Below are positions 301 through 61,654 of a stretch of 64,000 nucleotides of DNA, piece by piece; position 1 is the first letter of the stretch; each line of letters opens with the position of its first letter. The stretch spans positions 12,834,001-12,898,000 of the forward strand of contig OY740799.1 in the NCBI GenBank assembly GCA_963514005.1, given 5' to 3'. This DNA is from Raja brachyura (Eukaryota). The position numbers were made by a program, and so were the translations under genes. The notes under the pieces were generated by a model. That model saw only the letters and a program-made list of their open reading frames with translations. It had not been told where the DNA came from and did not search any database.

Positions 301-304
301 TGGT

Positions 305-698
305 GGGTGGTCAGCAATAACCAACCTGATCTCCCGGTGGCTCAGCATTTCCATTCCGAATCCGACCTTTCTGTCCTGGGCCTCCTCCAAGCACCACTGG
401 AAATTGGAGGAGCAGCACCTCATATTTCGCTTGGGCACTTTATACCCCAGCGGCATGGACATTGACTTCTCCAAATTCCGGTAGCCCTTATAGTCTCCTC
501 CCCTTATCAGCGCTCCCTCCGCCCTCTGGCTCCTCCTCTTCCTTTCTTCTTCCCGCCCCCCCCCACCCGACATCAGTCTGAAGAAGGGTTTCGGCCCGAA
601 ACTTTGCCTTTGCTCCATAGATGCTGCCACACTCGCTGAGTTGCTCCAGCACTTTTGTCTACCTTCGATTTTCGAACATCTGCAGTTACTTCTTAAAC
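305..698 (+). mobile_element. Penelope-like element 3' end/pseudo-LTR (GIY-YIG C-terminus, 3' UTR, hammerhead core)
   Basis: KLEEQHLIFRLGTLYPSGMDIDFSKFR* is the typical C-terminus of the Penelope GIY-YIG domain. It is followed by a pyrimidine-rich UTR, CTGAAGAAGGGTTTCGGCCCGAAAC at 578-602, and the same tail found in the other short copies in this window. Confidence 0.8.
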
Positions 699-989
699 AT
701 TTTGGCTACATACAAAGTGTTTGCCATGTTACTTGTATTACAACAAAGCCACATGTTCGAATGACCTGAAAGGGCAATAGAAGTTACTAAATAATTTCTG
801 AAAGAATGCAAGGATTCTTTCAACATATTTTACCATCTGACAAATATCTTGTAACTATTTTCCCTGCAAAAAAAAACTCTTTAAGCTGCTATTTCATTTC
901 ATTATTTTATTCTTTTATTAATTGATTGAAATATAGAGAATGAAAAAGGGCCCTTCAACCCACCAAGTCAATGCCACTCATCGATCACC

Positions 990-1240
990 CATTCACACTA
1001 GTTCTACGTTATCGCACTTTTGAATCCATCCCCTAAACACTAGGGGCAAATTACAGTGGGCAGTTAATCTAGAAACCTCCAGGTCTTTGGAATATTGGAG
1101 GAAACCAGAGGGCCCAAGGAAACGCAAGCGATCATAACGAGAATTTGTAAACTCCACACAGACAGCACCCAAGGTCAGGATCGAACCCACGTCTCTGACA
1201 CTGTGAGGTAGCAGCTCTATCAGCTGTGCCACTGTGCAGC
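990..1240 (-). mobile_element. tRNA-derived V-SINE (HE1-like), degenerate
   Basis: The reverse complement matches the SINE head/core seen at 2701, 22760 and 45990 (B-box-like GGGTTCGATCC followed by GGGTGCTGTCTGTGTGGAGTTT). Confidence 0.75.
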
Positions 1241-1648
1241 CTGGAATACGGTTCCATGGGTGTGCTATTATAAAAAACAAATATTGACTTTTAGCTGTGT
1301 CTACCAAGTTTTAACAACTTTTGGAGGAAATGTGTGATAAGTGCATCCTGAGGTCCTCCGCTGCACAAATTTATATTTTGCATGTTACAGATATCTGATA
1401 GTGGTGAAAGCAGGTTTAGTTCATTAATTTAGTAGGGTATTACATGCTTGGGATTATTCTGTTGATGTTTCCAGTTTCTTCAATATAATTGATTTATAAG
1501 CTTTAAATGACTCAACTTCCTATTGTTACCATAGTTAATTTGCTTGCATATATAGTTAATTTAATTGCATATTGTATAAGATCCCCTGTCCTGTTCTATA
1601 GCATGAGATTATGATTTATAAATATGTAAATTAGTTTTTCTTTCACAG

Positions 1649-1770
1649 CTTGGACAAGAAAATGTTGGCTTGATTGAGGATTCCATTGAACCTGAAAATG
1701 TAGGGGTAGCTTCAGAGGAAAATATAGTGGTTGGAATCGTGAAAGATGCTCCTAGTTATAAAGAAAATAA
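1649..1770 (+). CDS. Internal coding exon of the uncharacterised + strand gene
   Basis: tttcacag| acceptor and aa|gtgagt donor; 122 nt open acidic frame (LGQENVG...SYKEN). Confidence 0.7.
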
Positions 1771-4113
1771 GTGAGTTGATCAAATTATTGTGTTCTGGTT
1801 GCCTACATCATGGAAGATGCAATCCATTTAATGCTTCCATTTTTCATTCCTCAGTTTAATCTACCATTTTGATTTTGGACATCAGAACTTCTATGAGACG
1901 AAGAAGGAATATAATGAAGCTTGCATTAGTAACCTCGCAGACTGGTGAGCTAGCTTGTTTTTAATGTAGTAGTACCCTTCAAAAGGACAGTGTGATCTTA
2001 AATTAGGAAGGCTGAAGACATTGTCTTAGCACGTAGCTATTAATTATGTCTACCTTCGCAAAATATGGTTAACTGTTTTTATTTCACCATTCTACTTAAT
2101 GCAGAACTGATCTTCATATCCCACATCCTTCCTCATAGTATTTCTGGCAGATCAGAAAGAATATATAAAATATTGACTATATACCTGTACTAATTCAGCC
2201 TAATTATGAAACTTTAATTCATTTTATACAACCTCCATACCCAATTATTGCAACTGCAATCTCTCCATCCCAATGAAGTTCAGGATATCCATAATTCAGC
2301 AGTCTTTATGCAAATCTGTACAGTGCTGGATATTCATCATAGAGGCACAGAAAACAGCAGATGCTGGAATCTTGCATAAAAAAAACAAATTGATGGATTC
2401 ATTTAGCTTGTGTGATAGCATCTCCACCCGTCTGAAGAAGGGTCCCAACATGAAACCTTGTCTATTAATTTCCCTCCACATACACTGCCTGACCCGCTGA
2501 GTTCCTCTAGCAGTTTGTTGGATATCTATCATCGTGGTTTGCCTGGTTGACTGATGTCACTGTTCAAAATTTTCACTGTCATATTGATATGATGTCAAAA
2601 TGCAAATTATGCATTTTTACATTATTGGAAAGTGTCATTTAAGATGGTAAAGATTTTGGTGAATGTGGTCATTTCTTCCAATTCCTTAATCCCTTAAAGA
2701 AGGGCAGATCAGTGACGCAGCGGTAGAGCTACTACCTTACAGTGCCAGGGACCCGGGTTCGATCCTGACTACGGGTGCTGTCTGTACCGAGTTTGTACGT
2801 TCTCTCTGTGACCTGCGTGGGTTTTCCCCGGGATCTTCTACTCTCTTTAACTCATCACAGGCAAAAAAGTTTTAGTCATAAGACTTAAAATTCTGTATTG
2901 ACTTCTCTAACCTGTTTCTCCTCTACCAACCTTCCTTTATCTTCCCACTTTGGCCAAGCTTTTAGCCATTCTTCCTAATATATCTCCTTTGTGGTTTAGT
3001 TAACCCTGCCAAGATTTGTTTTTAATCGTCATGAAAAATGCACCTGTAAGGACTTCAAAGTTGCATGTTTAGTTTCTATCATTAAATAACACATGCAACT
3101 TAACTCGTTTACCAATACAATAAAATCTAACTTTGAGTTGGAATTGAGGCTGGTTATGTCATCTTAGCCCCATCAAGTTGCAAATTACATGATAGACTTG
3201 GCATTAGCTAATCATTATTACATCAATTTTGATGGCATTTGACAGAGATGTGGTCCATCTTTATTGCACCAAAGTCTTCGGAATTGGGTTTAAGTGTATG
3301 ATTTTCTAATTTGTGTTAGAGACATTAATGAGAAATATGTTTTATATTAACAGCAGTGTTAACTATTTTTTATCTGCAATGTATTATTTTGCTAAAGTAA
3401 ATATTTTTATCCATTATGACCAGTTATTAAGTAAATAAAATCTAAGTTTCTTCTTAGTTTAACGGAGCAAATTGAAGCAATTTTTATTGCAGTTTGAAAC
3501 TTAATGTTTGCTTTGAGCACGTAATGAAGGATGGTAACTGTTTATATTATATACATGGGAGTTCCCTGATGGATAACTGGTGGAACCCTAGGAAATGGGA
3601 AACAAATCTAACATTGCCATTGACACAGTGCAGTCAAAGTGGTAATATGGAGGTTTTTGCCTCCATTCATTTTAATATATGTATATATATTGTAGATGGA
3701 TATAAATATTTAGTTACAGATGGCTGTCTAACTTTTTCAGGTCTAATGATGTCATTCGGCATTGTTGGAGAGAGCTGTTTGCGGTGGTAAGGATCCTGGT
3801 GAATGTGGTCACTTTGTTTTTGATTGAATTGGTGAATTTCTTAAGTCGATCGTTCATCGAAATCCTAGTGGTTGGACTCTTGACAGCAATTGGAGACCAT
3901 GTGCTGAAGCCACTGCTGGCGACTTTGTTCAACAGCCTGCTGCAACCCATCATGATATTCCAATTGAATATTTTCACTGGCATAAGAAACCTCTTGAACC
4001 CTTTAATCGACATCATCAGAAGACTGATTATGCAAATAGCTGCTTTGTTGCATGCCTTCCGGCTAGTGGAAGTGAATTTTAATCGTGCTCCGTTCACCCA
4101 TCAGGAAGTGTAA
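1649..4113 (+). CDS. Uncharacterised gene, last three coding exons (1649-1770, 1855-1944, 3741-4113); 5' exons outside the window or not recognised
   Basis: Canonical AG/GT sites with compatible phases (0/2, 2/2, 2/stop) give LGQENVGLIEDSIEPEN...NLIYHFDFGHQNFYETKKEYNEACISNLADWSNDVIRHCWRELFAVVRILVNVVTLFLIELVNF...GDHVLKPLLATLFNSLLQPIMIF...AFRLVEVNFNRAPFTHQEV*. Confidence 0.8.
1855..1944 (+). CDS. Internal coding exon of the uncharacterised + strand gene
   Basis: ttcctcag| acceptor after an 84-bp intron and tg|gtgagc donor; 90 nt; keeps frame (LIYHFDFGHQNFYETKKEYNEACISNLADW). Confidence 0.75.
2340..2520. mobile_element. Short Penelope-derived fold-back element with degenerate hammerhead core
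   Basis: AACAGCAGATGCTGGAAT arm, TCTGAAGAAGGGTCCCAACATGAAAC at 2431-2456, then a CTGCCTGACCCGCTGAGTTCC arm. Confidence 0.65.
2701..2835 (+). mobile_element. tRNA-derived V-SINE 5' part
   Basis: A-box-like GTGACGCAGCGG, B-box GGTTCGATCC and V-domain-like GAGTTTGTACGTTCTC...TGCGTGGGTTTTCC. Confidence 0.8.
3741..4113 (+). CDS. Terminal coding exon of the uncharacterised + strand gene (long hydrophobic/amphipathic helical domain)
   Basis: ttttcag| acceptor; 373 nt open to TAA; includes track ORF 3784-4113. Confidence 0.85.
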
Positions 4114-7004: not shown

Positions 7005-8537
7005 CTATTGAGTAATCCATGACTGCTGGACTACTGAACTACGTCTGGCTGCTTTGACTGCTGGCTCTCGAGCTTTTGCATTAATTTCCTCTGCTGATGA
7101 CTGAATGCTGGCTATTACTGACATTTCGGCAGCTATGCTTCCTGCAGGCTCGTCATTGTGAGCCATTACAGAAATGTCCTCTTTTCTTTCTGATGCTGAG
7201 CTGTCTTTGGCTTTCATTTGATCCTCAACAAGTACTCTTTCCTCTGCACCCATCATGGTCAATCCTCCTGTTGCTGTATCCTCTGCAATCACTTGTCTTG
7301 ATGACTGGCCCTCAATAACCTGTCCTTCTGTTAGTTTGTTTTTGGCCACATCGACAGTCAGGCAATCTGTAGCCACCTCTGGTAATGAACATTTTGTGGC
7401 TGTGGCTACTGGATCTTCTGTAGTAACATTTGCAGTTTCATTGGATGTTTTTCTTACTACTGTGCCTTCCATTCCACCCTCTTGGATCTCTATGGTCACT
7501 CCTGTTGTTGGACACTGAAATATTACTCCTTCTATCACCATGGCTGCAGGATTCTCAACTGCTATTTCACCTGCCAGTGGCTTCTCTGTAATTGTTATAC
7601 GTTCCATTGTTTCTGGACAATTTGTTTCCAGCAGATAGTCTGTTGACATTACTTCCTCTGGGTGCTGTATTGCTAATGGATGCTCCGCTGACACTACATA
7701 ATGTTCCACTGAGTTCTCTGATATTGGATGCTGAACCACCAATGGATTCCCCAGTTGTACATCGGCTGCTGGTTGCCTTGCGATTAATGGCTGCACTATG
7801 GCTGGTGGATAATCTGTGCCTATTACATGAACTGTGATTACATTTTGTACCTTTTGATCCACTACCTTTTGATCCATTGAACCTGCTGTTTCTGAGCATA
7901 TTATGTGTGCTTGTCCTTCTGGTGTGGTCACTAGGTTTTCTTGTTCTGGTGGGGACATTAATTTTTTCTGCTTTTCAGTTATTTGGTTCTCTTGTCCTTC
8001 TGCTGTACAGGTTACATGGTCTAATTCTCCAGCTGAATTCTCGTCTTGTATTGAACATTCAATTTCTCCTAGCATAGTCTGCAAATGTCCTGCTGCTTCA
8101 AAAGCAGTTTCCTTTATGAATTCAGAAACATCTGCTTTATTTTCATGTTGTGTCCCCTTCTCCATGTTGTCCTTTCCCGACTCCTTCTCTCCTCTGGTGG
8201 ATGATTGCAGATCAATTCCTAATGAGAAATCCCCAATTACTCTGTGCTGTTCATTCTTAAATTCCGAACATTGATGTTTTATATTGGTATGACTTTCTTT
8301 AGCCAAATTACTTTTGATGCACATAGACATGCAGTCAGCAGTTTGCACTTGTTTTCCATTAGTGAATACAGATTTGATCACACTGTCTGGTTCTTGTGCA
8401 GCATCAAGTAGTGGGTTTGGGACTCTCCACAGATTATTTGTGGCACATTCATTATTTGATTCCTCTTTGCCAATACTGTATATTTCTTCTGTGTAGGCCA
8501 GATTACTGTAAGATGATATGGTCTTGTTGGTGTTATT
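7005..8537 (-). CDS. CDHR5-like: CDHR5-like terminal exon: 510-aa acidic, low-complexity cytoplasmic tail
   Basis: Longest ORF in the window (7005-8624). Polypyrimidine tract plus ttcag| acceptor in phase 0, matching the upstream micro-exon. Ends ...SSVVQQSWITQ*. Confidence 0.8.
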   Translation of the reverse strand, partial: NNTNKTISSYSNLAYTEEIYSIGKEESNNECATNNLWRVPNPLLDAAQEPDSVIKSVFTNGKQVQTADCMSMCIKSNLAKESHTNIKHQCSEFKNEQHRVIGDFSLGIDLQSSTRGEKESGKDNMEKGTQHENKADVSEFIKETAFEAAGHLQTMLGEIECSIQDENSAGELDHVTCTAEGQENQITEKQKKLMSPPEQENLVTTPEGQAHIICSETAGSMDQKVVDQKVQNVITVHVIGTDYPPAIVQPLIARQPAADVQLGNPLVVQHPISENSVEHYVVSAEHPLAIQHPEEVMSTDYLLETNCPETMERITITEKPLAGEIAVENPAAMVIEGVIFQCPTTGVTIEIQEGGMEGTVVRKTSNETANVTTEDPVATATKCSLPEVATDCLTVDVAKNKLTEGQVIEGQSSRQVIAEDTATGGLTMMGAEERVLVEDQMKAKDSSASERKEDISVMAHNDEPAGSIAAEMSVIASIQSSAEEINAKAREPAVKAARRSSVVQQSWITQ

Positions 8538-11500
8538 CTGAATTGCAGAAAGAAAACAAAGGAGAAAATGCTGGTAAAGTAAGTTAAGTGAGAATATTTT
8601 ATTTCTTTTTCCTGCCAATTGCAATTTTTAAAATAGTCTTATCTTGGAAATTGATAGGTATATGAATCACTGTTATGTCCAAGTTAGATTCACAATGTCC
8701 TTGAGCTCCATTATGTAAAAATTACCTTGATCATACACAGCACAGGCTCAACATTCTATGAATGCTTCCTCAACATTCAACCATTATGGAATGAGTTAGT
8801 TGCAGATTAACGCTTTCTGTATAGAGCTCCACGAATATGAAAGCATCAAGTGAAATAAAGTTATGGAATCTCACAAACAGAGAGAATAGATCAAGAAATC
8901 TATTGAAAAATTAATCATCTGGAGATTTGAAACATTGTAGAATCCTTATGGGAAAAGCAATCATCATACATAAATACAAAAGACAGTGTAGAGAGCAGGA
9001 TTACTGTATCAAATAGAGATTTCCCATTTGGTATTTTTTTCACCACAGAAGAGCATTTTGCCGCAGCAGATCAACCCTAATAAAATACACAATGCTCAGA
9101 TATTTTTTCTCTGCAAGAGCCTCTGCAAGAGCCTCACCAATCTCATTGGTGATTCTGTTATCCTCAATTTATTTCCCCTAAAGCATTCATTCTATTGATG
9201 AGGATGAGGCCTTCTCTTATTTTTGATTCACTTTGGTTCACAATTTTGTTGCAGATGATAATTTCAAAACCAATACACCATAAATTAATTTGATTCTGAC
9301 ATGTTCTGTTGCATCCTTTGATTAAATGAGGATTAGAACCTTTGCAGTCCATTCGAGACAGCAACCATGATAATGGACAACCTCCAAGCCCACACAGAGC
9401 CCCACTAGATTTGGTGAATTATACATAGATATCTGATGTACTACAGCCCCTAAATAATCAGTCACTAATAATTGTCACACTCTGGAAGAATAGAGAATAA
9501 ATACACACTCACCATCTGGAACCACTTTAAGCTCTGAGGACACCGAGTTGTGAACAAAAAAGAAAATGAGCCAAAACACAGAGAGAGAGAAAGTAAGTCA
9601 TATTTTCCAATTGGAGGAACTGTTGCACTTTAAGTAATTCTTTGACAAAGGATTGTTTGATCATGCACAAATATTGAATTTGGTTCTCACTAAGCGTTGC
9701 GTCTCCAAATAGCACACTGTTCATTGGCAATTCATAGTTAATGGCAGAGGTAGCATAAATCACAAACAAATTATTTTCCAGTCTGGGATGATTACATAAA
9801 AAACAATTGCATTTTCCTACCATGGTTTGAAGAACCTCAACTATCCTGAATTATTGTTTCACCTGAACCTTAGTTAACTTAATCATTGATACTTAAGAGC
9901 TTCTAGTTATTTTCTGGATTCAATGGTAACCATTTTTCTTAGTTAACAGATTGCAACTATGTAGCTATGAAATTTATGTCTCGTGAAATATGGTAATTGA
10001 TAACTGCTTACTCTTTGATATATGTGGAATGATCCATGGCTGTAGACCATTCTCCCTGGACTCTGGTTACTTTTTTAATACCTAATTTCCTACTAAATTA
10101 TATATCAATATTCATTCTCTGGCAGGTGAGAATTTTAAATAAGTAAAACTACAGTAATGTTCACGGAAATATATATTCATGCTTGGCAATGATACGAACG
10201 CGATGGCATTGTTGACTGAAAAGGTTGCAAAGCTGCTTTAGTGAAATTAATCAGATTATGTGAATGGATAAACTCAAGGTAGAGGAATAGACCGAGTCTA
10301 TCGTGTGTTGTTATTTGTTTTTATTCCTATGGCTGTATGGTGACCACACATTTCACTGTACCAATTGGTACATGTGACAAATAAATGTATCTTGTATCTT
10401 GTATATAATGTGGACAAGATGATGCTAAGTGAAAACTAGATCCAAATGATTTGATGTCCTTGGAGGTAATGAATTGTTGTAAAGAATTGATTTATTAAAT
10501 TAATATGGGCTAGATTGGAGTCAGATTCCACAAATCAAATGGCAATCATTCAGGAAACATATAGTGTACTACATAGAATCAGATCATTTAGCTCTACAGT
10601 TTTGTTTGAGTCTCTATGTTCAACTTAAAATTTCCCAATTCCTCTTTCCTTTCAGCTTATGCATGTTTCCCTTAAATGCATGTATACTACTTGCCTTCAC
10701 TATTTTGTCATATTCTTTTTTTTAGTGAATTTGAAAGAATATATCTTTAGAGGTTGTTTCCCCATTTGGAGAGTATAGAACTGCAGCTTGCACTCCCTGG
10801 AGTCAGCCACTTGGATAAAGATATTTTTCTCATTCACAGGAATTCTAAATGCTGCAGAATTGCAGCCATTAAATAATATTCAAGATGTAGATTGATCGTT
10901 TTTGTGGGGCTTAAGTGAATTAGGACATAATGGGGTATCTAGTCCACAAATATCTTCACCAGAAGGAATGTAACATTTTTTTAGGATCCTCGCTACTACA
11001 GTATCTCAAAGCAAAGCCTTGACAATGATGCTCGTATCCAAAAAAATAATTATTTAAAAAGTTGAGATGACTGTGGAAGTTCAGTTATGACCTTATTAAA
11101 ACTCAGGGTGTTGTATACTATAGTCCTGTTAAAAATAAAATACAAATAATAGTCCTATTTAAAAATAATTACGCTCTGTTAATTTTGATACTGCAATGGC
11201 TAGTTCTCTTTTGAACATTCTCTTATTTCTCCAAAAGGTCCATTACATTCAGCCTCATTGTGTTGAAACCAAGGCTCATTATGTAATCTCCAACTCAAGT
11301 GCAAACTTTGCTTGAACTGAGGAATTATTGATCTCCCTTAATTGTCCCACCATCCTATATTTTCAGACATTCATGTGTCGGCACCATTTAATAGAATATT
11401 TAATCTAGATATCTTACCACATTGGTGTTTTGGTCAATGGCAATTGTGCCCCTATGTCTGCGATGCCTGTGCCATTCTCTTCCATTATGTATGAGTAGAA

Positions 11501-14500
11501 CAAGTGCAGAAATAAGGAAAAGAAGTAAGACTGCCGTGATTCCTCCCACAAGCCCTATTTCCTTCGAACTGTACTTCCTGCTTTCCTTGGCAAGTCCAGA
11601 TGGAACTGCATATCAACGGAAAAACCATGCATTATATAATAAAAAAATAAAAGATGTGCCTAATGTTCTGGGAGAAATGCGAGAGTTTATTTTGTGAAGG
11701 TTGTGTGTTTTCTAATACTTGCAAGCAATAAGTAGCTTTAGAAACAAACTTATTATTGTATTTCTTTGTAAGTGCTGAATATCACCAATATTCACATTTT
11801 CTATTAAGTTTTCTTGGTTAAGATTGTTAGAGACTAGATTTGAAAGTCTTGTAGGTTTTCTTATAACAATCACTTTACATTTCAAAGCTTTGGGTACTGC
11901 AAAAGTAAGATTCCCTTATGCAAGCAAATATATTCCATGTGATGCAGTTGAACATGTTTTGCGTAATGATGACTGTAGACAATCATTCTGCTTTTCATCA
12001 AGTATTATATTGGAATCTTTTATTTTTTATCTTAATTAGCCAAAAAATCTCAAATCAACATTGTTTACATTCGCAATATTGAAGCACCTCCTTCGTCCTG
12101 ATTGTGTCGATCAGCCAAGATCATGAATTTATCCTGACATATTTCAGTGACCACCTATACTATGAAATCTTGGACAGCTTTTTTGAAATACTCTGGGATG
12201 ATCTCTTTCATTATTGACAGTGAGTTGTACAACTGGTCTAAACAATGTATGAGGAGGAGGGAGACATTCCATGCGCCCTTGTCCAAAGTAGGCAGCTACA
12301 GTGTTTATTTAGAACAGTGCATAATTACAATTTAAAATATTTCTACTCTTGATCTCTCTCTGTATTTCTGTATTAACCATCTTGCTTGCCTTCCCTCTGT
12401 TCTACCCTCTCTGGTATCTCTCTCTCGTAGCCATAGTTTTTATGCCATTCTGTTATTCTATCATCAAAAACCTGGTCAGATTAACTATCATTTTCTTAGC
12501 GCAAGGACATGCAACAAGTTCCTTCTGTACGTTTCTCATCTGCAGAGTGGTTCTTATTATCTATGCTCCTTGGTATTGAATAAAATGAATTATTTCCAAC
12601 AAATGTTAATTCAAATCGATTTAAACACCAACACAACTTAAACATTTGCCAGTTTAACAACCCAGTTATGAGGTCCTGGAAACATATGGCCAGTATTATC
12701 CCGTAGATTCACATGGATTTGAGTGCAGCAATTGGCAGGTTAGGCTATCAGATTATAGATTTAACAACTTTAAATAGCTGCAATAGGGACTTTAAATAGC
12801 TGCAAAAACGTCCATGAAGTCTGTGTAAAATTGCTGCTAATGCCCCCAGTGCGGTTTGAGGGCAACACTGAAATTGTTAAACATATTTAATGAATAAAAC
12901 CTGTGTGCTTTCTTTCATTAACAATCTTCCAAAATCCTTCAAAGAACAAATAGGTTATAATTCCAAGAAGTGAAGAATGTAGTACCCACAGCATGTGCTG
13001 TTACTCTAGTACCTCTGTACTACAGAGGCCAAAAATCTAATGTTAAGCACCTGAAATCCATTGTATCCTCGGGCTATTCATCCAGATTTGAAGGCTTGAT
13101 TCTAACTACGTATTGGTTATACATTGCTCGTGTGTGTTTGAGCAGCACGTAGAAGAGAAGGAAATTTGGCACAAACCCAGCATTTGTAATCTACTTATGG
13201 AACTTGCTATTGTGACTGAGCAATGTTCTGTTTCCAAACAGAAAGCACATGGCTAAGTTAGGTTTTAAAGGAATGTCTGCAAAATAGATCTATTAAGCTG
13301 TGTGGCTGTCATTAGCCTGCGATATAATTGGGAATTTCTATTTCTGAAAATGTACAAAGGAGCTTTTATTTTCTGTAACATATGAAGAGTCATCTGCAGT
13401 ACAGTTGTATCCTATTTGAAAATCAGATATCTAGAAGATTAAGGAAGGACTATAAATCATATAGTCCTTAAAAGTAACACCAGCAAATTTAAAAGTAACA
13501 CTAGCAAATTGGCAGATGACCCAAAGCTGGGTGGCAGTGTGAACTGCGAAGAGGATGCTAGGAGGTTGCAGGGTGACTTGGACATGTTGAGTGAGTAGGC
13601 AGATGCATGGCAAATGCAGTATAATGTAGATAGATGAAAGGTTATCCAGTTTGGCGACAAGAACAAGGAGGCAGATTATTACCACAATGGTTAAGAAGGA
13701 ACTGCAGATGCTGGAAAAATCGAAGGTAAAGAACAATGCTGAAGAAACTCAGCGGGTGAGGCAGCATCTATAAAGCGAAGGAATAGGTGACGTTTCGGGT
13801 CGAGACCCTTCTTCAGACTGATGTGGGGGTGGTGGGGGCGGGAAGAAGAAAGGAAGAGGCGGAGACAGTGGGTTGTGGGAGAGGTGGGAAGGGGAGGGGG
13901 GAAGAGGGAGAAAGCAAGGACTACCTGAAATTGGAGAAGTCAATGTTCATACCGCTGGGGTGTAAACTACCTAAGCAAAATATGAGGTGATGCTCCTCTC
14001 AGTGGTGTCAGATTAGGAAAAAGAGAAGTGCAACGAGACCTGGGTGTCCTTGTACACCAGTCACTGAAAGTAAACATGCAGGTACAGCAGGCAGTGAAGA
14101 AACCTAATGGCATGTTGGCCTTCATAACAAGAGAATTTGAGTATAGGAGTAAAGAGGTCCTTCTGCAGTTGTACACGGCCCTGGTGAGACCACATCTAGA
14201 GTATTGTGTGCAGTTTTGATCTCCTAATTTGAAGAACAACATCCTTGCTATTGAGGCAGTGCAGTGTAGGTTCACGAGGTTAATACCCAGGATGGCGGGA
14301 CTGACACATGAGGAAAGATTGGAAAACCTGGGCTTGTATTCACTGGAATTTAGAAGGATGAGAGGGGATCTTATAGAAACATATAAAATTATAAAACGAC
14401 TGGGCAAGGCAGATGCAGGAAAAATGTTCCCAATGTTGGGTGAGTCCAGAACCAGGGGCCACAGTCCAAGAATAAAGGGGAGGCCATTTAAAACTGAGAT

Positions 14501-35648: not shown

Positions 35649-35741
35649 ACACAAAAAGCTGGAGAAACTCAGCGGGTGCAGCAGCATCTAAGGAGTGAAG
35701 GAGATAGGCGACGTTTCGGGTCGAGACCCTTCTTCAGACTC
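35649..35741 (-). mobile_element. ~95-bp Penelope-derived element with intact hammerhead and 9-bp TSD
   Basis: TCTGGGATT at 35640-35648 and 35742-35750; arm nearly identical to 18451-18506. Confidence 0.82.
35710..35737 (-). ncRNA. Minimal type I hammerhead ribozyme motif
   Basis: CUGAAGAAGGGUCUCGACCCGAAACGUC, identical to the 13789-13816 core. Confidence 0.75.
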
Positions 35742-45905: not shown

Positions 45906-45989
45906 TACATCAATCAGACCTTCCCTCATCTCCTAACTAACAAGAATAGCTTTTGATGAAGCTTTGTCAAAGATGTTTGATCGAGATTT

Positions 45990-46222: not shown

Positions 46223-47754
46223 AAGATATGCCTGAAAGGTCACTTTCAAAATCTGGTGAGTTTGATTTTGTTCTATTTACAAACCAATGGAACAAGAATA
46301 AATAGTGAGAAATGGACTCATGGTAGAATTGGCTGGTTCAAAGGAGACGGTTATTGTCATTCACTTTTGGGAGAAAGGGCCCTCAAAACCAGCCTAGTTG
46401 GATGGGCTATATTGGTGTATATTTGTATTGGTGCATATTTGTGTATGTGTATATGTATATATTTGATTTATGGGACAAAAGGTACCTTTATATATTGACA
46501 GAGAATAGGCAAAGTGAAATTGAACCTTACTTCCTGTATCTGTGGAGCTAATTTGAATAATTTTGTACTCAGGCGTGCACTTCAGACGTTGAATAAAAAG
46601 CCTATTTTGGGAAATGTAAATAGGTCTTTGTTAATATTTTAACCGCGCTATTTCTGACCTGAGCATTCTCAAGGTTAATATTGGTCTTAAGAAGAGTCTC
46701 ATTTTGCTCAGTACAAAAACTCAATTATAAAAATAAAATCCAAAAAGACTTGAAACATTCAGCGGGTCAGGTAGGTCTTTGCACTGATGCAGTCTGGATT
46801 GCTGCATGTTTCCAGCATTCTCTGTTTATATTTTGGATTACCATTTGTATTTTTTAACGCAAGCTGACATGCTCAGTCTTAATCTCTTTTTATATTATTA
46901 AATATAACACTTTTTGACCTTCTTTCACATTCTTATGCTTTTATCACGAAGAAAGTAAAGCTAGATTGCATAATGTACAATCGCACTGTAAACAGTTTAT
47001 AAAAGGAAACATTTCACTGTAATATTTTATTATGGATAATCAAATTAACAAACAAATTCAAATAAAAATATAAACATTTTGTGTTTCATAATGATGGTGT
47101 AGAAATAAGTTTCTAGACAATATATTTCAAAACCATGTTCTTAAATACATTTATCAATAGTTTATGTTTTAATTTCCTTATTTTTCTAAGTTCTTCACTC
47201 ATGAAGTTTCAAAATTTTAATCTCTAACAGTTGCACATAATTTCCAGAATTTACTCATGTAAATCTGCCCAAGTCAATGAAAACAAGAGATCTCCAAAAT
47301 CCGAAAAGTTAATGGATTTTTTTGTCCCCCTAAGGACAACACGTTTCGTTTCATGCAGTTGTTGACATCCACATTTATTTGCCCCCAAAGCTGTATTTGT
47401 ATTATAAATTAATCGGTAATTAGAATGACTGATTTGAGTTAGAAAGGAAAGCAGCAATAGGTGGTTGATGGTGAGTGCAGAATCACTGAGCCGAAGGGCC
47501 TCTTTTTGTGTACTAAGTCTCTATGACTCTACTGAAATTGTTTATCCAGACTACAGTTTTTTCATTGGGATGAACAATGAGGGTGAAGCTTACAGTTTAT
47601 GAAAATGTATTATTTGCAACTTTCACCACATGCACATTCCTGTCATGTGGTGTGACTTAATCACTGGAATCAAATCTAGCAGATGGCATGCTTTGGTTCA
47701 TTTCTGATATTGGAAGTTCTAGACTAACAGGATGGAACTAATAAGTAATGTATA

Positions 47755-49347
47755 CAGTGGCTTGCAAAAGTATTCATACCCCTTGAACTTTTCCACGTTT
47801 TGTCACGTTACAACTACAAACGTAAATGTATTTTATTGGGATTTTATTTGATAGACCAACACAAAGTGGTGCATAATTGTGAAGTGGAAGGAAAATGATA
47901 CATGGTTTCCAAATTTTATTTCAAATGAAAAACTGAAAAGTGTGGCGTGCAAAAGTATTCAGCCCCCCTGAGTCAATACTTTGTAGAACCACCTTTCGCT
48001 GCAATTACAGCTGCAAGTCTTTTGGGGTATGTCTTTACCAGCTTTGCACATCTAGAGACTGAAATTTTTGCCCATTCTTCTTTGCAAAATAGCTCAAGCT
48101 CAGTCATATTGGATGGAGAGCATCTGTGAACAGCAATTTTCAAGTCTTGGCAGAGATTCTCAATTGGATTTAGGTCTGGACTTTGACTGGGCCATTCTAA
48201 CACATGAATATGCTTTGATCTAAACCATTCCATTGTAGCTCTGGCTGTATGTTTAGGGTCGTTGTCCTGCTGGAAGGTGAACCTCCGCCCCAGTCTCAAG
48301 TCTTTTGCAGGTTTTCTTCCAAGATTGCCCTGTATTTGGCTCCATCCATCTTCCCATCTGACCAACTTCCCTGTCCCTGCTGAAGAAAAGCATTCCCACA
48401 GCATGAAGCTGCCACCACCATGTTGCACAGTGGGGATGGTGTGTTCAGGGTGATGTGCAGTGTTAGTTTTCCGCCACACATAGAGTTTTGTATTTAGGCC
48501 AAAAACTTAATTTTGGTCTCATCAGACCAGAGCACCTTCCTCCACATGTTTGCTGTGTCCCCCACATGGCTTGTGGCAAACTGCAAACGGGGCTTCTTAT
48601 GGCTTTGTTTCAACAATGGCTTTCTTCTTGCCACTCTTCCATAAAGGCTCGATTTATGGAGTGCACGACTAATAGTTGTCCTGTGGACAAATTCTCCCAC
48701 CTGAGCTGTGGATCTCTGCAGCTCCTCCAGAGTTACCATGGGCCTCTTGGCTGTTTCTTTGATCAATGCTTTCCTTGCCCAGCCTGTCAGTTTAGGTGGA
48801 CGGCCATATCTTGGTAGGCTTGCAGTTGTGCCATACTCTTTCCATTTTCGGATGATGCATTGAACAGTGCTCAGTGAGATGTTCAAAGCTTGGGATATTT
48901 TTTATAACCTAACCCTGCTTTAAACTTCTCCACAACTTTATCCCTAACCTGTCTGTTGTGTTCCTTGGGCTTCATGATGCTGTTTGTTCACTAATGTTCT
49001 CTTACAAACCTCTGAGGCCTTCACAGAACAGCTGTATTTATACTGAGATTAGATTACACACGTAGACTCTATTTACTAATTAGGTGACTTCTGAAGGCAA
49101 TTGGTTGCACTGAATTTTATTTAGGGGTATCAGAGTAAAGGGGGCTGAATACGTTTGCATGCCACACTTTTCAGTTTTTTATTTGTAAAAACATTTGAAA
49201 ACCATGTATCATTTTCCTTCCAGTTCACAATTATGCGCCACTTTGTGTTGGTCTATCACATAAAATCCCAATACATTTACATTTGTGGTTGTGACGTGAC
49301 AAAATGTGGAAAAGCTCAAGGGGTATAAAAACTCGTGCAAGCCACTG
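47755..49347 (-). mobile_element. Full-length Tc1-family transposon (IR/DR type, DD34E), 1593 bp
   Basis: TA|CAGTGGCTTGCA...TGCAAGCCACTG|TA termini and ~210-bp TIRs with inner direct repeats (TGCAAAAGTATTCA at both ends of the left TIR). Confidence 0.95.
47973..48975 (-). pseudogene. Tc1 transposase, frameshifted
   Basis: MKPKEH...GLGYKK / NISLSTVQ...GRPPKL...VLWSDETK / ...QQDNDPKHT...WPSQSPDLNPIE. There are 34 residues between the second D and E. At least three frameshifts (~48900, ~48490, ~48360). Confidence 0.93.
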
Positions 49348-50305: not shown

Positions 50306-50914
50306 AAGGGTAAACATGATTTGGCTGGAGGGAAGGTATGTGTTCTGATTTGTCTTGCATTAGCACCTGTAGAAACAAGGAACTGCACATACTGGCTTTA
50401 AAAAAACCCACAAAGTGCTCCATAGTCTGAAGAAGGAATTCAACATGAAATATTGCCTATCCATGTTCTCAAGGGATGCTGCCTGACTTGCCTGATTACT
50501 CCAGCACTTATGTCTTTTTTATGCACTTTTGCCTGCCTAGCATGTATTCTCAGCTCCCTGTATCTTGCACATTCAGTGTGCTCCATTTCAAACTGAAAAA
50601 TACATTTACCTGGTGCTTTTTTGTAGAGAAAAATGTGTCGGTATACATATCAATTAAAAATTAAGCTATATTCAGCAATTTTTTTTCTGTCGTATACCCA
50701 ACATTTAGGACACTTTAACTTGTAACGAAATAACTGATCTCTAAATTGAAAAAAAAAATTGAATTCATTCATCTGCGTTATGCATTAATTAAGCATGATT
50801 ATAAACATGCATTTCACATTATAAACATGCATTAGATACCAGGAAATATAATCACAAAAAAGACCACAGAGTATACTCACCGGTTCCCCTTTATCCACAG
50901 AATATTTTTTTCTT

Positions 50915-51559: not shown

Positions 51560-53160
51560 TACAGACTATGACTGACTCTCATCCTTGCTGTTGTACTCAA
51601 AACCTCTTGCAACGAGGGATTCACCTGCATGTATGCTCGCAGAGACTGGTATGCAGGACACCCAGATCCCTTTTTACTTCAGTTCCAAATCTACTACCTG
51701 TTAAATAATGCTCGGTTTTTCTGTGTATTATTTGCAAAGTGAACAACTTCACATTTATCTGTATTATACTGCATTTGCCCACTGATTCAATTTACCTAAT
51801 GTTTAAGAAAGAACTGCAGATTCTGGAAAAAATCGAAGGTAGACAAAAATGCCGGAGAAACTCAGTGGGTGAGGCAGCATCTATGGAGCGAAGGAATAGG
51901 TGACGTTTTGGGACAAGATCCTTCTTCAATTTACCTAAATCATCTTGAAGCCACTTTGCCCCTTCCTTACAACTCACAATCCGACACAATTTTGTGTCGT
52001 CAGCAAATTTAGAAATATTACAATTGGTTCCCTCATCTAAATCATTGCTAAATATTGTGAATAGGTGAAGCCTCAAACACTGATACTGTGGCACTCCAGA
52101 ATCACTGCCCACTACCCCAAAAAAGACCTATTGTATTTATTCCTTCTCACAGTTAACTCTGTATCAACCCATCTTCAATCTAGATTACCTCCATTCCTAC
52201 CAACTTTAACTTTGCGTAGCAGCCATAATCATAGTCATACAGTGTGGAAACAGGTCCTTCAGCCCAACTTGCCCAAACCAGCCAACATGTCCCCTCTACA
52301 CTAGTTTCACCTGCCTGCGTTTGGCACATATCTCTCTAAACCTGTCATATCCATGTACCTGTCTAAATATTCCTTAAACGTTGTGATAGTAGCTGCCTCG
52401 ACTGACTCCTCTGGAGTTAGTTGAGGCATACACCATACACCTACCATCCTTTGTGTGAAAAAGTTACCCCTCCTATTAAATCTTCTCCCCCCCTCACCTT
52501 AAACCTATGTCCCCTGGTTCTCGATTCCCCCACTCAGGGCAAGATACTCTGTGCATTTACCCGATCTATTCCTCTCATGATTTTATAGCCTTCTATGTAC
52601 CACATTACTGAATGCCATCTGAAAATCCAATGTGCCATTTTCACCGATTTATCCTTTTCTATTCTACCAGTTACACCCCAAAGCAAACCAATTGGTTTGC
52701 AAATCCAATTTGCCTGAATCCACAATGACAGTCTAATCCTGTTGATAGTTTCCAAGTATCCAGTTATCATTTTATTTGTAATATGCTGGCAATTTTCATA
52801 CAGTCGATATCAAGCTAAACAACCCTTCGTAACACATTGACATTCTATTTGCCAACCTCCAATCTGCAGAAAGCATTCCATAATCTACAAAATTTTAGAA
52901 GGTGATCATCAGTGCACCCACTATATCCATAGCTGACTCTTTTATTTCTCAAAGGTGCTGACTATCAGACCCAGGGGATTCTATGGTATTCTATCCCATT
53001 AACCAGTTCAGCACTATGTTTTAACAACTACTAAATTCCTTTCACTCTTCCATTTGAATATACTCTTTGTTGCCTCCCATTTCTAGGAGGTTATTTATGT
53101 CTTCTTCCAAGCAGATGGATTGAAAGTATTTGTTTAATTGCTCCGCCACATATGATTGTA
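51560..53160 (-). mobile_element. Cluster of old CR1 RT fragments, with a younger CR1 tail and a Penelope-derived insert (51800-51928, TSD ATTTACCTAA)
   Basis: GVPQ...LFTIFSNDLDEGTNCNISKFADDTKL (track ORF 51792-52112). TTCAATTTACCTAA at 51786-51799 and 51925-51938. Confidence 0.75.
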
Positions 53161-53394: not shown

Positions 53395-53440
53395 CTCACA
53401 CACACATGCACAGAGAGTAAGAGAGAGAGAGAGAGAGAGA
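53395..53440. repeat. (CA)n/(GA)n microsatellite
   Basis: Directly visible. Confidence 0.85.
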
Positions 53441-54179
53441 TTGGAGAGAGTCCATCGTTGTCACTTAACTGGCATTGCAATGTTTAAGAAGTTTGCTATT
53501 GTTAATCCCCTACCACTCCCAGCAGCAGTCAGTCAGCTGCAGATGAAACTATCAAGGAGATGTTTAACAAGCTAGCAGCAGGTCATGCTAGAGTGTTCCC
53601 CTAACAACAAGCTAGGGAGTTGAGAGAGACGGAATAACACCAGGTGAGAGGTGGGGGAGTGCAGCAGCTGTTTATATGTCCGTGGAACAGCACTCACACA
53701 AAATGAGACACTCTATAATAAGATTTGAAAATTTTAATCATTTATTTATACTTAATTCAGAAAATTCTATCAATTAGGAAATGTTCCCAGGCTCATCTGT
53801 CTCTCTCTTTCTGATTTTATTAAGTATCTAGAAAATTTTCAGACTTCAAAATTGTCTGATCAGATCGTGTTCAGAATAAAGAGCGACACAAGAGACTGCA
53901 AATGTTGGAATATTGAGCAAAAAATAAACTGCTGGAGGAACTGAGCGGTCAAGCAGCATCTGTGGAGGGAAATAGACAGGGGAGGTCATTAGTGCGCTTT
54001 GCTTTGAAGAGGCAGTTAAAGGTCAAATATGTTGTGGATCTGGCATTGCACTGAGTATCGACTAACGATGGCAGATTTACTTTCCTAAAGAACAATAGTG
54101 AACTGGAAACAGTTTTACCACAATCCAGTGGTTTGATGTTCACCACTGATACTGGCTTTTTGTTTGAGATTTATTTAAA

Positions 54180-54572
54180 GACAATAGACAATAGGTGCAG
54201 GAGTAGGCCATTTGGCCCTTCGAGCCAGCACCATTGAATGTGATCATGGCTGATCATCCACAATCAGTACCCCATTCCTGCATTCTCCCCATATCCCCTG
54301 ACAGTCCAAGCCAACCAGCGATCCCCGCACATTAAAACTATCCTACACACACCAGGGACAATTTACATTTATACCAAGCCAATTAACCTACAAACCTGTA
54401 CATCTTTGGAGTGTGCGAGGGAACCGAAGATCTTGGCAGAAAACTCACGCGGTCATGGGGAGAATGTACAAATTCTGTGCAGACAACACCCATAGTCGGG
54501 ATTGAACCCAGGTCTCCAGTGCTGCAGGGGTTGTAGGGCAGCAACTTTACCACTGCGCCACCGTGCCACCCT
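54180..54572 (-). mobile_element. CR1 tail fragment joined to a V-SINE
   Basis: CAATAGA repeats plus CR1 3' UTR (54180-54300); reverse-complement SINE head at 54480-54572. Confidence 0.78.
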
Positions 54573-57367: not shown

Positions 57368-57650
57368 ATAATAGACAATAGGTGCAGGAGTAGGCCATTC
57401 AGCCCTTCGAGCCAGCACCGCCATTCAATGTGACCATGGCTCATCATCCACAATCATTACCCCGTTCTTGCCTTCTCCCCATATCTCCTGACTCTGCTAT
57501 CTTTAAGAGCTCTATCTAACACTCTCTTGAAAGCATCCAGAGAACCGGCCTCCACCGCCTTCTGAGGCAGAGAATTCCACAGACTCACGACTCTCTCTGT
57601 GAAAATGTTTTTCTTCATCTTTGTTCTAAATGGCTTACCCCTTATTCTGG
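57368..57650 (-). mobile_element. CR1 3' fragment
   Basis: Reverse complement of the CR1 3' end seen at 14450-14755. Confidence 0.85.
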
Positions 57651-57803
57651 GTCTACCCCTTATTAATGGCTAGCATTCTGTCTGCTGGTGGTACAGGTAT
57701 GGTGTAGGAAGGAACTGCAGATGCTGGTTTAAACCGAAGATTGACACGAAAAGCTGGAGTAACTCAGTGGGACAGGTAGCATCTCTGCAGAGAAGGAATG
57801 GGT

Positions 57804-57831
57804 GACGTTTCGGATTGAGACCCTTCTTCAG
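57804..57831 (-). ncRNA. Minimal hammerhead motif variant inside a short Penelope-derived element (~57703-57835)
   Basis: CUGAAGA-A-GGGU-CUCA-AUCC-GAAAC-GUC; stem II is kept through a G-U wobble. Confidence 0.6.
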
Positions 57832-59628
57832 ACTGGCATGGATTGATTAGATAAAGATAGAATGGATTTGCTAAAGGCAAATCATGATTAACTAACTTGG
57901 GAAGAATTTTTGATTACAGAGGGGATCAAGGAGGGAAATAAAGTAGTGCACGGGTTTTCATGCACCACGAAAAAGCCATATAACAGACCCAGATTAAAAG
58001 GCACGGAATAAAATGGCCTAAAGCAACATGGATTGATATTTGACTAAGTAAACGGAAACAGACAGTGCAATGGATGGTTGTTTATCACACTGGGGGCATT
58101 TGCAAAGTGGTATTCCCCAGGGCCAATAACATATCTTGATATGTATAAGTGACTTTGACTTGGGAGTACAAGACTCAATTTCCACAGGATATAAAACCCA
58201 GAGGTGAAATGAACAGGGAGGATACTGTTGGATTTCAAGGAGACATGATGGAATGTGTGCGGTCTAATTCTGGTCTTTGTCAAATTTTACATTTTCATAG
58301 ACTGAGAGGATGCAGTGTAAGCCTAAGGTCGTGTTTTTAATGGGATTTGGGAACAGTCAGACATGGGAGAGTGACAGGGGACTAAGTGGTTATAAAAGGA
58401 TATTTCATGCTTGATTTTATAAACAGAAGAATACAAAACATGAGGAAGGGATTCATGGCCAATCTTTGAAAAATATGGGTTGGCTGCAAATAAAACATAC
58501 TCCAAGCACAGGAACAGGTATTTCGCACTAAAGGGCTTTAGTTATGTGGATGGAGAAGCTGGGATTGTTTTCCCTGCAACAGAAAATGTTGAGAGAAAAT
58601 CTGATTTAAAATCATGAAGAATTTTGAAATGGGAGAGAGAGAAACACTTCTGCGTATCAGCCGGACAGGTCAAGAAATGGGGAAGGCGATCAGTAAAGTA
58701 AATAACATGGGAAAATATTTACACGTGATTTGGATCTGGAATTTACTGTCTGGTGCAGTCCTGGAGGCAGATTCAACTCGCACCTATAGACCGATGTAAG
58801 TATCTTAAAATAAAGAGTTTGCAGGATTATGGGGAGAGAGCAGGGAGGTAGAACATGATGGCCCAAAAGGCTTCCTTCTGAACTATAAATGCCTGGAAGT
58901 TCAGTAAACATTGATCGTTTATGGCCTAATAATGCCTTTAAGAGTCATGCTGTTTACATATCTCACTGAGCTTTGACTTGCGGACCACTAATCTGCAACT
59001 AATCAGCAGATTTGGTCTGACACTGTATCATCTTCTACTTCTGAGAAGAAGCAGACTGATGCACCACTGTGCCTCAGCTACGCTTAAAAGTATGTTCTCA
59101 GGAACAAGGACTTGCTATAATCTAAATATCCCACGTACCCCCACAAACATGTTTAACCTTCAATTTGTGTTATAGCAGTGAAAAGTGAAATTTATAGAAG
59201 ATATTAGTGTTGCTGAAGTATTGCAATATTGAGTGACGCAAAGCATTTGGAATACAAGCAGGAGGAAGTTGTTCAACTCTGCCATTTGAAATGAGATCAT
59301 GGCTGATCTTTCATCTCAGTGCCATATTCCCATGCTAACCTCATATTCCATGATTCCCTCACAGTTTTTAAATCTATTGATTGTCCACAGCCCCCTTTTT
59401 TAATAAAGGGAAACAAACCATTTACCTTCCTAATAGTTTGTTGTACCTGTATAATAACTTTAAATAATTAATGTATGGGAATGCCGAGGTCCCTCCGACA
59501 ATAACATCTTTCAAACTCACCATTTAAAAAATGCTTTAGGGCCATTCTTTGGAAAGTGAACCAAAATGTTACACACGTGATCAGATGTCATCATATAAAC
59601 TAGACCAAAATGCTGGAGAAACTCCAGA

Positions 59629-59656
59629 CTGAAGAAGGGTCTCGACCCGAAACGTT
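59629..59656 (+). ncRNA. Minimal type I hammerhead ribozyme motif inside a Penelope-derived element (~59600-59755)
   Basis: CUGAAGAAGGGUCUCGACCCGAAACGUU; 24-bp near-perfect inverted arms (59601-59624 and 59697-59720). Confidence 0.75.
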
Positions 59657-60109
59657 GCCTATTTCCTTCGCTCCATAGATGCTGCCTCACCCACTGAGTT
59701 TCTCCAGCATTTTTGTCTACCTTCGATTTTCCAGCATTTGCAGTTCCTTCTTAAGCATCACAGAAAGTAATACGTTAAAGAATTCTTGTAAGAGATTAAT
59801 CTTATTCATTGCTATTTCCCTACCTAAAGAACTTTGATTTAAAAAAAAAATTCACATAGTTTGTAAGGCTGAGTTATGAAAGAAATGCTTGCGTGTGAGG
59901 TCACACACATGACCAGTCATATTTGACCTCTGCCTCTAAACAAACATTGTGAGCATAACATTAAAAGTTCACTTGATAAACGGAAAAAAATATGAATCAT
60001 ATATACAGTACAAAACAATGTACCTGTAATGCTTTCCGAATTAGAAATGTATTCCACAATTTTTCATATTTTTGGTCACACAAGTGAATAAGAATCTTCC
60101 TTTTTTTTC

Positions 60110-60700
60110 TACTAAAGTGGATGATCACAGATTTTTTCCACCTCTTATTCCTTCTGGTAGGCCCTCACCCATTCACTTAGCCTGCCTGTGTCCAAAGCCT
60201 CTCCTCATCCTCTTTACAACTCGCCATACCACCCAGAATTGATCATCAGCAAACTTTGATATATTACACCTGAGGCCCTCTTCTAAATCATTGATGAAGA
60301 TTGTGAACAGTTGTAGCCCCAGCACCGATTCTTAAGGCAACCTACTGGATGCATCCTCCCAATCCGAAAATGAATTTTGAATTCCACCTCCCTGTTTTTT
60401 GCCACTTAACCAATTTTTAATCCATGCCAATATACAACCAGCATATGTTTTCTGTATCATTTTCTGTAATAATCTATTGTGTGATACCTTATTGAAAGCC
60501 TTATGTGTCCAAATTACTACATCCACTGGTTCACCTACATTGCTATTTAATATTTCAAAAGGTTGCGAAACATGATTATGTCAAACATAATTTCCCTTTC
60601 AGATATCTATGTTGACTTTACCCCATCCTATAATTTTTTCTAAGTGTCTAGATATCATGTCCTTAATAATAGATTCCAACAACTACAGTTTCCCTTCTAC
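60110..60700 (-). mobile_element. Old CR1 RT fragment
   Basis: VDVV...KAFNKVSH.RLLQK...ILAWIKNWLSG.KQ...SFSDW (track ORF 60332-60526) and downstream FIND...KFADD-like remnants. Confidence 0.7.
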
Positions 60701-61654
60701 TGGAGAAAGAGCAACACAGAAAAACCCTCATTATAATGGACCATGGGAGGTTGGGGGGAGGGATGGGGAGTGCAAATGATATCCGCTATTGCTGAATGTC
60801 CGTTATAACCTTATAACCGTGTATCATTGCACGTAGTAAAAACAAAGAACTGCAAATGCTGGTTAATACACAAAAGGACACAAGTGCTGGAATAATTCTG
60901 TGGGTCAGGCAGCATCTCTGGAGAACATGGATAGGTGACGTTTTGGGTCAAGACCCTTCTTCAGACTCTCGGTCTGGAACTGGGCCTGGAATCTGGGCGA
61001 GTTGATGCCCCCGACCTGCTAGCGGCCAGGGGAGAGGCGAGAATCGACGGAATCATTCATCACGGCCTGCGGGCGACCGTTGTGCAGGCAAGGGTCGGCA
61101 GTGGCAGCGGCTGGCATTACCTGGAAGCGGCCAAGGAACCTGTGTGAGTCTGCAGTGTCAGCAGCAGGTCTGGCCTGGAAGCAGCCGGGAAAGTGGTGGG
61201 GTCCGGCATTAGCAGCCCAAGGTCACCGAAGGTCGGTAGGTCCGGCCTGGAATCAGCTGCGATGGCGATGGTGTCGGCAGCCCGGCCTGGCAGGGAAGGT
61301 CGGTAGGTCAGTCTGCCATAACTCAAATCCATTATGAAGAGGTTCATAATAACAAGGGTTACTGTAATGTGTATTGTAGGAGTAACATGAAATGAGTGAA
61401 ATAACATAGACTAGTCCAATTGATTAAATGTATTAGCTGAATGTTTGGAATTCTAGATATAGGACTGGGCCATAGGTAGTAAGTGGGAAGAGAAGATGTG
61501 GGGATAACATTAAGCAACTCTGTAACAATTCAATGAATGTTTCCCCGTTCAGTTGTTATGCTGGTGTTTATTGAATGCTCACGCTTGTTGCTATATTGCA
61601 CCTAGGGGAAATAGCTAGGGCACCGAGGGGAACAGTTGACATAAGTGTGTGTTT

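Follow-up and report, generated by a model that had tools for sequence, protein, structure and literature searches.

Minimal hammerhead ribozymes (min-HHRs) are a familiar part of Penelope-like elements (PLEs). Vertebrate genomes each hold thousands of dispersed single copies, described as "probably related to truncated PLEs", as well as opposite-strand pairs lying 100-700 bp apart (PMC4209133). Insertions of endonuclease-bearing (EN+) PLEs of the Penelope, Poseidon and Neptune types show head-to-head inversion, a 30-40 bp tail at one end, target-site duplications (TSDs) of about 9-14 bp, and an open reading frame (ORF) that starts inside the pseudo-long terminal repeat (pLTR) (PMC3846280, PMC8557442); in Adineta, PLEs likewise combine an inversion with a tail on one arm and a TSD of 8-10 bp (PMC3846280). 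Here we analyze a window of 64,000 nucleotides from Raja brachyura (contig OY740799.1, positions 12,834,001 to 12,898,000 of the forward strand), in which a preliminary description had recognized a dispersed, hammerhead-bearing sequence family. The copies in this window share each of the features of EN+ PLE insertions just listed, and inversion, tail, TSD and hammerhead together are known PLE anatomy. Each copy consists of the terminal ~90 or ~125 nt from a pLTR, comprising the hammerhead, an arm with a conserved ATG, and an optional tail of ~35 nt, and we consider it very likely that all of them are PLE pLTR insertions. They depart from described EN+ insertions in that many are just 90-200 bp long without any ORF body, and in that the hammerhead arm begins at a fixed point.

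The hammerhead itself, which reads CUGAAGA, one extra A, helix II (on the best reading, 4 bp closed by a loop of 4 nt) and GAAAC-GU-H, fits the published metazoan min-HHR consensus (PMC4209133 Fig. S3). With the PLE ribozymes of fugu Xena, Xenopus and Latimeria it shares CUGANGA plus an extra base, the G10.1-C11.1 pair, GAAAC-GU-H and the palindromic ACGU, along with the location in the pLTR, dispersed single copies and opposite-strand pairs (PMC4209133); the fugu Xena core is identical to that of the window (PMC4209133 Fig. S3). Its helix II of 4 bp and helix I of 2 bp fall near the lower limit of the published lengths, and the parts of that study consulted make no mention of the 5' edge that the short copies share (PMC4209133). 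A descriptor requiring CUGANGA with one unpaired base, a helix II closed by G-C, GAAA, a palindromic 15.2/16.2 and U-H was matched by four copies (13816, 35737, 57831 and 59629) against none per window in 100 shuffles. Thus, the earlier assignment to the type I minimal hammerheads of PLEs is well founded. Of the two copies called near-intact, 57804(-) is the one that matches the descriptor at 57831, and 578(+) is less intact than claimed, with a broken helix-III palindrome and a 7-nt deletion.

An exact 27-nt core occurs three times, at 13790-13816(-), 35711-35737(-) and 59629-59655(+), which are the sites given as intact in the preliminary description (13789(-), 35710(-) and 59629(+)). A loose CTGA.GA...GAAAC pattern adds 578, 2432 and 57807-57831(-); its match at 25662 is unrelated to the family. 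An nhmmer profile built from nine window copies, which match it by construction, returned 26 matches at E<=1, and 25 of these score above the best of ten Markov-shuffled windows (3.5-9.1 bits), the arm at 50372-50419 being marginal at 9.2 bits. The remaining match, at 25171 (5.7 bits), falls inside the shuffled range and was discarded. The 25 arms form 19 loci, six of which have two arms, and these loci together with an ORF piece at 1-304 occupy 3,046 bp, or 4.8% of the window; were one locus per 3.4 kb typical, the genome would hold hundreds of thousands of copies. The motif or a decayed form of it is present at all 13 of the coordinates named for a core said to recur about 13 times, and the present count adds six loci. 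Also new relative to that description are the tail, the inverted ORF piece at 1-304 and the head-to-head arrangement of six loci.

Two long copies connect these sequences to a Penelope-type protein. Both the 5'-truncated copy at 305-698(+), which has a frameshifted GIY-YIG C-terminus, a pyrimidine tract ending in CAG, a hammerhead at 578, an arm and a tail, and the copy at 13689-14000(-), which has the endonuclease (EN) C-terminal peptide, a pyrimidine tract, an intact minimal hammerhead at 13789-13816, an arm and a tail, encode the peptide with which PLE endonucleases terminate, so that the GIY-YIG link proposed at 305-698 and 13691-14000 holds. In addition, positions 1-212(-) translate without stops, and a full HMMER search with this translation found 76 protein relatives, among them P0029, a protein of 924 residues with matches to RVT_1 (E 1.2e-9) and, below the curated cut-off, to GIY-YIG (E 4.8e-4). 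The inverted piece at 1-304(-), from the N-terminal region before the reverse transcriptase (RT), matches residues 198-274 of P0029 at 48% identity (pairwise E 3e-15), and the EN ends in the window match residues 900-916 (pairwise E 3e-5 to 8e-4), which agrees with the Penelope derivation originally proposed. Because both ORF pieces of 1-698 match P0029, this locus is a head-to-head PLE insertion in which the 1-304 piece, belonging to the larger arm, faces the 305-698 copy and leaves the window at its left edge; a near-full-length element may lie just beyond. The RT domain is likewise outside the window, where the fragments cover the N-terminal region and the C-terminus only. The Neptune type is recognized by RT phylogeny and by a Zn-finger-like motif between RT and EN (PMC8557442), and P0029 has a Cys cluster, seen by eye, in that interval, a region absent from the window; by this feature of P0029, the source elements may be Neptune-type. 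Word-indexed protein searches with the EN C-terminal piece, the N-terminal piece and the peptide that follows the conserved ATG gave no match, the ESM Atlas gave no usable match, and Pfam gave none to the window's PLE fragments.

Counting positions from the hammerhead C3 as 0, the copies end at their 3' side in one of two places, near +85-93 or near +120-127, the difference being the tail. Where two arms form a head-to-head inverted pair, the tail is on exactly one of them in all six cases (P 0.016 if arms are independent at p=0.5; two of the six pairs are old and weakly scored). In the pair at 2343-2519 the tail is on 2343-2423(-), and 2430-2519(+), with a decayed hammerhead, is without it; a 14-bp TSD with two mismatches flanks the pair. 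The inverted arm has the tail at 18414-18599, a young pair with arms identical at 61/61 positions, a direct arm from +2 and a 14-bp TSD with one mismatch; at 24209-24398, with a direct arm from +1 and a perfect 13-bp TSD; and at 50372-50517, an old pair in which the tailed arm is the one of marginal score and the direct arm starts at -3. It is the direct arm that is tailed at 31080-31277 (from +6; a 12-bp TSD-like repeat with two mismatches is not significant) and at 59599-59756, where a short inverted arm, 59599-59624(-), adjoins a direct arm, 59626-59756(+), with an intact core but no remaining helix I.

As claimed earlier, short copies do carry TSDs of 9-14 bp, which are significant at six of the 18 loci tested (reached by at most 4% of 300 random flank pairs; locus 578 was outside the test); weaker repeats abut the copy at three further loci, and none was seen at the remaining tested loci. 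The six TSDs are 68% AT, against 59% for the window. Among solo copies, 35648-35740(-) starts at -3, has an intact hammerhead and no tail, and is bounded by a perfect 9-bp TSD; 40232-40356(+) is old and tailed with a perfect 13-bp TSD; and 51800-51928(-), tailed and starting at +1, sits with a 14-bp TSD inside an RT fragment of a long interspersed element (LINE), the continuous frame of which is restored in the reconstructed empty site. Two more solo copies, both tailed, also start at -3: 57702-57834(-), with one of the descriptor-fitting hammerheads and a 7-bp TSD-like repeat that is not significant, and 60836-60967(-), where G12 has been lost through CpG decay. The ATG at +49 is conserved (2 of 47 bases changed) and likely is an ORF start; the frame it opens runs for ~13 codons, or ~26 with the tail, compared with 12 and 22 in the Adineta Pen2a pLTR (PMC3846280).

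The feature that most needs explaining is the edge on the hammerhead side. Of the 19 loci, twelve have their 5' end in the interval from -3 to +6, five begin further in and the other two are the long copies, a clustering (12 ends inside an 11-nt window) that is significant under an exponential truncation null at each of six mean lengths (P<=5e-5) and that persists among young copies alone (6 of 8 within 6 nt, P<=1e-4). Inverted arms, by contrast, start anywhere from +13 to +77. That the short copies might be simple truncations with random 5' ends and without TSDs of their own was the outcome that the preliminary description set against its proposal, and it is not what the sharp clustering and the TSDs show. 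PLEs are heavily 5'-truncated as a rule (PMC8557442) and five of the 19 loci do start downstream of +6, so a version of this idea deserves mention in which the ends only seem to cluster because a hypervariable pyrimidine tract upstream does not align between subfamilies. It is very improbable: the upstream flanks of the six solo copies are unlike each other and unlike the long copies, being 33-67% pyrimidine versus 87-89% with alignment scores at background, TSDs or inverted arms directly abut the 5' end, and the young copies cluster by themselves.

The long copies show what lies at the edge in a less truncated element. Position -3 is the A of a TCAGT that follows a pyrimidine tract, and this motif is initiator-like. 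The 35737 copy, bounded by its TSD, carries one additional G where it joins the flank, which is what a cap would leave behind, in this single case. In both long copies the same tract ends in CAG 1 nt before C3, making these bases a 3' splice-site candidate as well, and a donor-like GT lies at the ORF stop, ~95-105 nt upstream of the CAG. A putative pLTR intron of ~95-105 nt can thus be drawn at 481-576(+) and at about 13818-13924(-); it includes a GC-box-like run. An intron in D. virilis ends at helix I (PMC4209133), and by eye several PLE hammerheads have a YAG just upstream (PMC4209133 Fig. S3).

Taken as a whole, the copies are likely the insertion products of autonomous EN+ PLEs of several successive subfamilies. 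According to this explanation, the element's endonuclease would nick both strands about 9-14 nt apart, and the RT would prime internally at either of two sites, one on each side of the tail. If it primed where the pLTR first meets the ORF, synthesis would run off 3 nt before an uncleaved hammerhead, at an RNA 5' end formed at the initiator-like TCAGT, and so yield cDNAs of 90-125 nt; priming from both nicks followed by microhomology joining would give the inverted pairs, and priming at a downstream junction of a tandem RNA would give the long copies. Any activity of the ribozyme would belong to the parent RNA and would require dimerization or the aid of protein, and the dispersed copies would be inert from the moment of insertion. 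The run-off itself, from an RNA that starts immediately ahead of an uncleaved hammerhead, is a step that we favor only slightly.

Much of this scheme has a precedent in the anole element PAc, for which two-strand nicking and extension, RT initiation at internal sites on the two boundaries of the tail, a product length set by the template's 5' end, a dependence on ORF RNA lying past the tail, and the use of uncleaved RNA as the main substrate have been reported in vitro (PMC11167929). We extend the PAc mechanism to the window by inference, and the fit is close in some respects and loose in others. In PAc, 85-92 nt separate the hammerhead from the main RT start downstream of it, and the cut site in the window copies is ~60 and 98 nt from the two 3' ends; in PAc the uncleaved RNA is inserted and the targets are AT-rich, as are the window's TSDs; and the candidate ATG follows the ribozyme here, whereas that of PAc is at stem II (PMC11167929). 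PAc also belongs to the Poseidon clade (PMC11167929), while the window copies may be Neptune-type.

Several observations weigh against this explanation or parts of it. Its mechanism is borrowed from that different clade. The GIY-YIG score of P0029 (20.8 bits) is below the Pfam cut-off of 22.6, and the EN match in the window spans just 17 residues (best pairwise E 3e-5). Following the +49 ATG there is no codon-position signal (changes at 20/167, 33/165 and 25/164), and the encoded peptide matches no database protein in the searches made. Placement of the 5' ends was in part visual and is uncertain in old copies, and the null against which they were judged is simple exponential truncation. Moreover, the inference of a transcription start rests on one motif, and the CAG at -2 is equally a 3' splice-site candidate. 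Finally, the ORF-linked copies in the window come from one subfamily, so that other subfamilies could lack autonomous parents.

A different origin of the edge would be structural, with RT starting at the downstream junction and then stalling or switching templates at a folded or protein-bound hammerhead or at a splice junction. In all five predicted folds the core is sequestered, its purine run being paired to pyrimidines immediately past the cleavage site; the inversion at 18414/18507 joins at these complementary purine and pyrimidine runs; and the pyrimidine tract with its CAG in both long copies, like the D. virilis intron that ends at helix I, would fit a splice junction. These points are offset by three others. 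The folds are no stabler than shuffles (z -0.59 to 0.44), the stops come after the structure would already have been copied, and the upstream exon that splicing predicts beyond the AG is missing from every short copy. A structural stop therefore seems unlikely to us, if worth keeping in view. The same shuffles led us to set aside a specially stable anti-ribozyme hairpin.

Whether the short copies form a family of their own is a separate question, and the preliminary description had answered that they are a distinct, non-autonomous one whose core is always joined to the same arm. We find instead several subfamilies, about five groups with pairwise identities of 49-100%, in which 17 short loci accompany two long ones. 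The short copies are colinear with the ORF-linked ones and have nothing beyond the 3' terminus of the latter, two of them (59629 and 51928) being 91% and 88% identical to the long copy at 13816. In a tree of low resolution (10 of 16 inner branches open, five arms below 70 nt left out) the two long copies fall among short ones in a nine-row group with support of 80/90. With no sequence of their own, this intermixing, and an anatomy of inversion plus tail, the short copies do not appear on sequence grounds to constitute a separate lineage. They do have the defined 5' end and independent TSDs expected of short interspersed elements (SINEs), and a genuinely non-autonomous family, transcribed from the ribozyme's 5' edge and mobilized in trans by PLE RT and EN, would also account for the ratio of 17 to 2 and for the four or so subfamilies that lack a long partner in the window; putatively non-autonomous PLEs in Chlamydomonas and pLTR-only mobilization in trans in Adineta offer precedents (PMC3846280, PMC8557442). 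Candidate upstream promoter elements are missing from the short copies, however, and PAc RNA requires ORF sequence to +172, beyond the tail and not present in lone copies (PMC11167929). Since lone copies have neither the upstream tract nor the downstream ORF RNA, they should not propagate. We regard a true non-autonomous family as improbable.

The copies also resemble non-LTR retrozymes, which are short, non-coding and pLTR-related and carry type I hammerheads (PMC7229834; bioRxiv 10.64898/2026.07.22.740005). A preprint describing pLTR-related vertebrate retrozymes, including one from a chondrichthyan, reports many monomers (bioRxiv 10.64898/2026.07.22.740005), so the copies could conceivably be monomeric offspring of a tandem repeat whose self-cleaved, circular RNA is reverse transcribed by rolling circle. 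Retrozymes, though, are tandem repeats with mostly canonical hammerheads and circular RNAs, whereas the window copies are solo or inverted with TSD and tail; their hammerhead is minimal, and none of the 19 loci has head-to-tail copies. Because none in the window is tandem, the short copies do not look like retrozymes, and we give their descent from one hardly any weight. An origin of the 5' ends at the ribozyme cleavage site was also considered and rejected, since at most one of 19 direct arms starts there, that of the old, tailed copy at 53885-53986(-), which begins near +23 to +28 and so close to the site at +28.

How active the ribozyme might be is suggested by its conservation and predicted folding. 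A13, A14, A15.1 and U16.1 are unchanged (0/62, against 82/439 at other A/T positions; P 1e-5, across subfamilies), which points to constraint on the core while it was still part of the source elements. Once inserted, the copies decay neutrally: all min-HHR features are retained in four of 16 aligned rows, and at CpG sites G12 has become A in five of the 16 and G16.2 is altered in seven. The covariation in stem II that the preliminary description had set as a test did not appear, since over four pairs in a small sample of 14-15 decayed copies there were no double-sided compensatory changes, G-U shifts and mismatches being all that was seen. At hammerhead position +10, outside any CpG, G has become A in six of 15 rows across subfamilies (18507, 24326, 40232, 50424, 51928 and 20381), one of them very young, with the loss of a pair in helix II.

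Helix I is 2 bp in three of the four descriptor copies and 0 in 59629, close to the estimate of about 2 bp made at the outset, and a hammerhead with a 2-bp helix I is known from D. virilis (PMC4209133). A core-only dimer, with helix I left out, has a predicted energy of -12.7 kcal/mol, well above minimum free energies of -19.7 to -44.7 kcal/mol, so that folding disfavors the active form. Published relatives cleave weakly as dimers (PMC4209133), and one cleaves only with the element's protein (PMC11167929). In the parent RNA, self-cleavage is thus plausible by analogy; in lone copies, with so short a helix I and a core sequestered in the predicted folds, it is unlikely, and doubts voiced earlier about monomer activity appear justified. 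Dimeric PLE hammerheads were reportedly also studied by Lunse et al. in 2017. An Rfam scan of the window gave 11 matches at E<=1, all below the gathering score and none a hammerhead; those resembling microRNAs (miRNAs), at 18466-18579 and 24262-24395, are inverted PLE arms, and the long perfect hairpins formed by inverted copies will mimic miRNA precursors in such scans. Scanning bacterial and archaeal genomes for the hammerhead core produced no matches.

One quite doubtful possibility is that several of the features above operate together. Transcripts would start 3 nt before the hammerhead, the run-off inserts of ~100 nt from several subfamilies would make up a self-propagating SINE-like class, a dimeric RT would prime both nicks at the two tail boundaries, and an anti-ribozyme hairpin would hold the hammerhead off until protein binds. 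If this were true, the genome would contain ~10^5 or more fossil intermediates recording the PLE insertion reaction base by base.

The five remaining loci are old or weak: arm fragments at 17166-17211(+), without a hammerhead, at 19455-19493(-) and, at 13.2 bits, at 46738-46785(-); a decayed short copy without a tail at 20384-20462(+); and a fragment of 14.6 bits at 40663-40717(+). Other repeats are plentiful in the window. LINE 3'-end fragments, mutually 77-91% identical, are abundant (14124-14754, 31982-32582, 63080-63700, 25695-25945, 57370-57654 and others), and two PLE copies, 13689-14000 and 51800-51928, adjoin such fragments or are inserted in them; the fragments appear CR1/L2-like. Repeats at 1065-1234, 2699-2838, 54179-54572 and elsewhere resemble tRNA-derived SINEs; ARAGORN found no tRNA gene in the window. 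These SINE and LINE sequences resemble those of cartilaginous fishes. A Tc1/mariner transposase occupies two frames at 47973-48901(-) (HTH_Tnp_Tc3_2 E 1e-21, DDE_3 E 3e-8), and a GC-rich, internally repeated segment at 41251-41870 (self-match 41314-41792) is possibly another mobile element. The solo copy at 35648-35740 lies within a degenerate minisatellite-like region of ~30-bp units with long open frames (35904-36739(-) and 34823-35021). A probable exon at 29405-29797(-) has a cadherin-like match under the cut-off (PF00028, E 0.004), which suggests a cadherin-related host gene with some PLE copies in its introns, and an acidic, low-complexity open frame of 540 codons at 7005-8627(-), without a Pfam family, is probably a long host exon. 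A Pfam scan of 13 further ORFs, of 25 first chosen, found no family.

Publications have described min-HHRs and their truncated, dispersed copies from 2014 onward, so that what we report largely extends known biology to a further genome. The supplement file of PMC4209133 that was searched contained no chondrichthyan entry, and we found no shark or skate description of this family in the literature searched, although its absence from print is not thereby shown. Nor did the search, which did not extend to Repbase, Dfam and most subscription papers, yield a description of the fixed 5' edge or of the rule of one tail per inverted pair. The interest of the result is therefore mechanistic, bearing on how PLEs build their pLTRs, inversions and tails and on what the ribozyme does. 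The clustered 5' edge hints at how these elements are copied and offers a modest clue to the mechanism; combined with the single tail in each inverted pair, it would support in vivo the two-site, two-strand priming that has been seen in vitro for one element.

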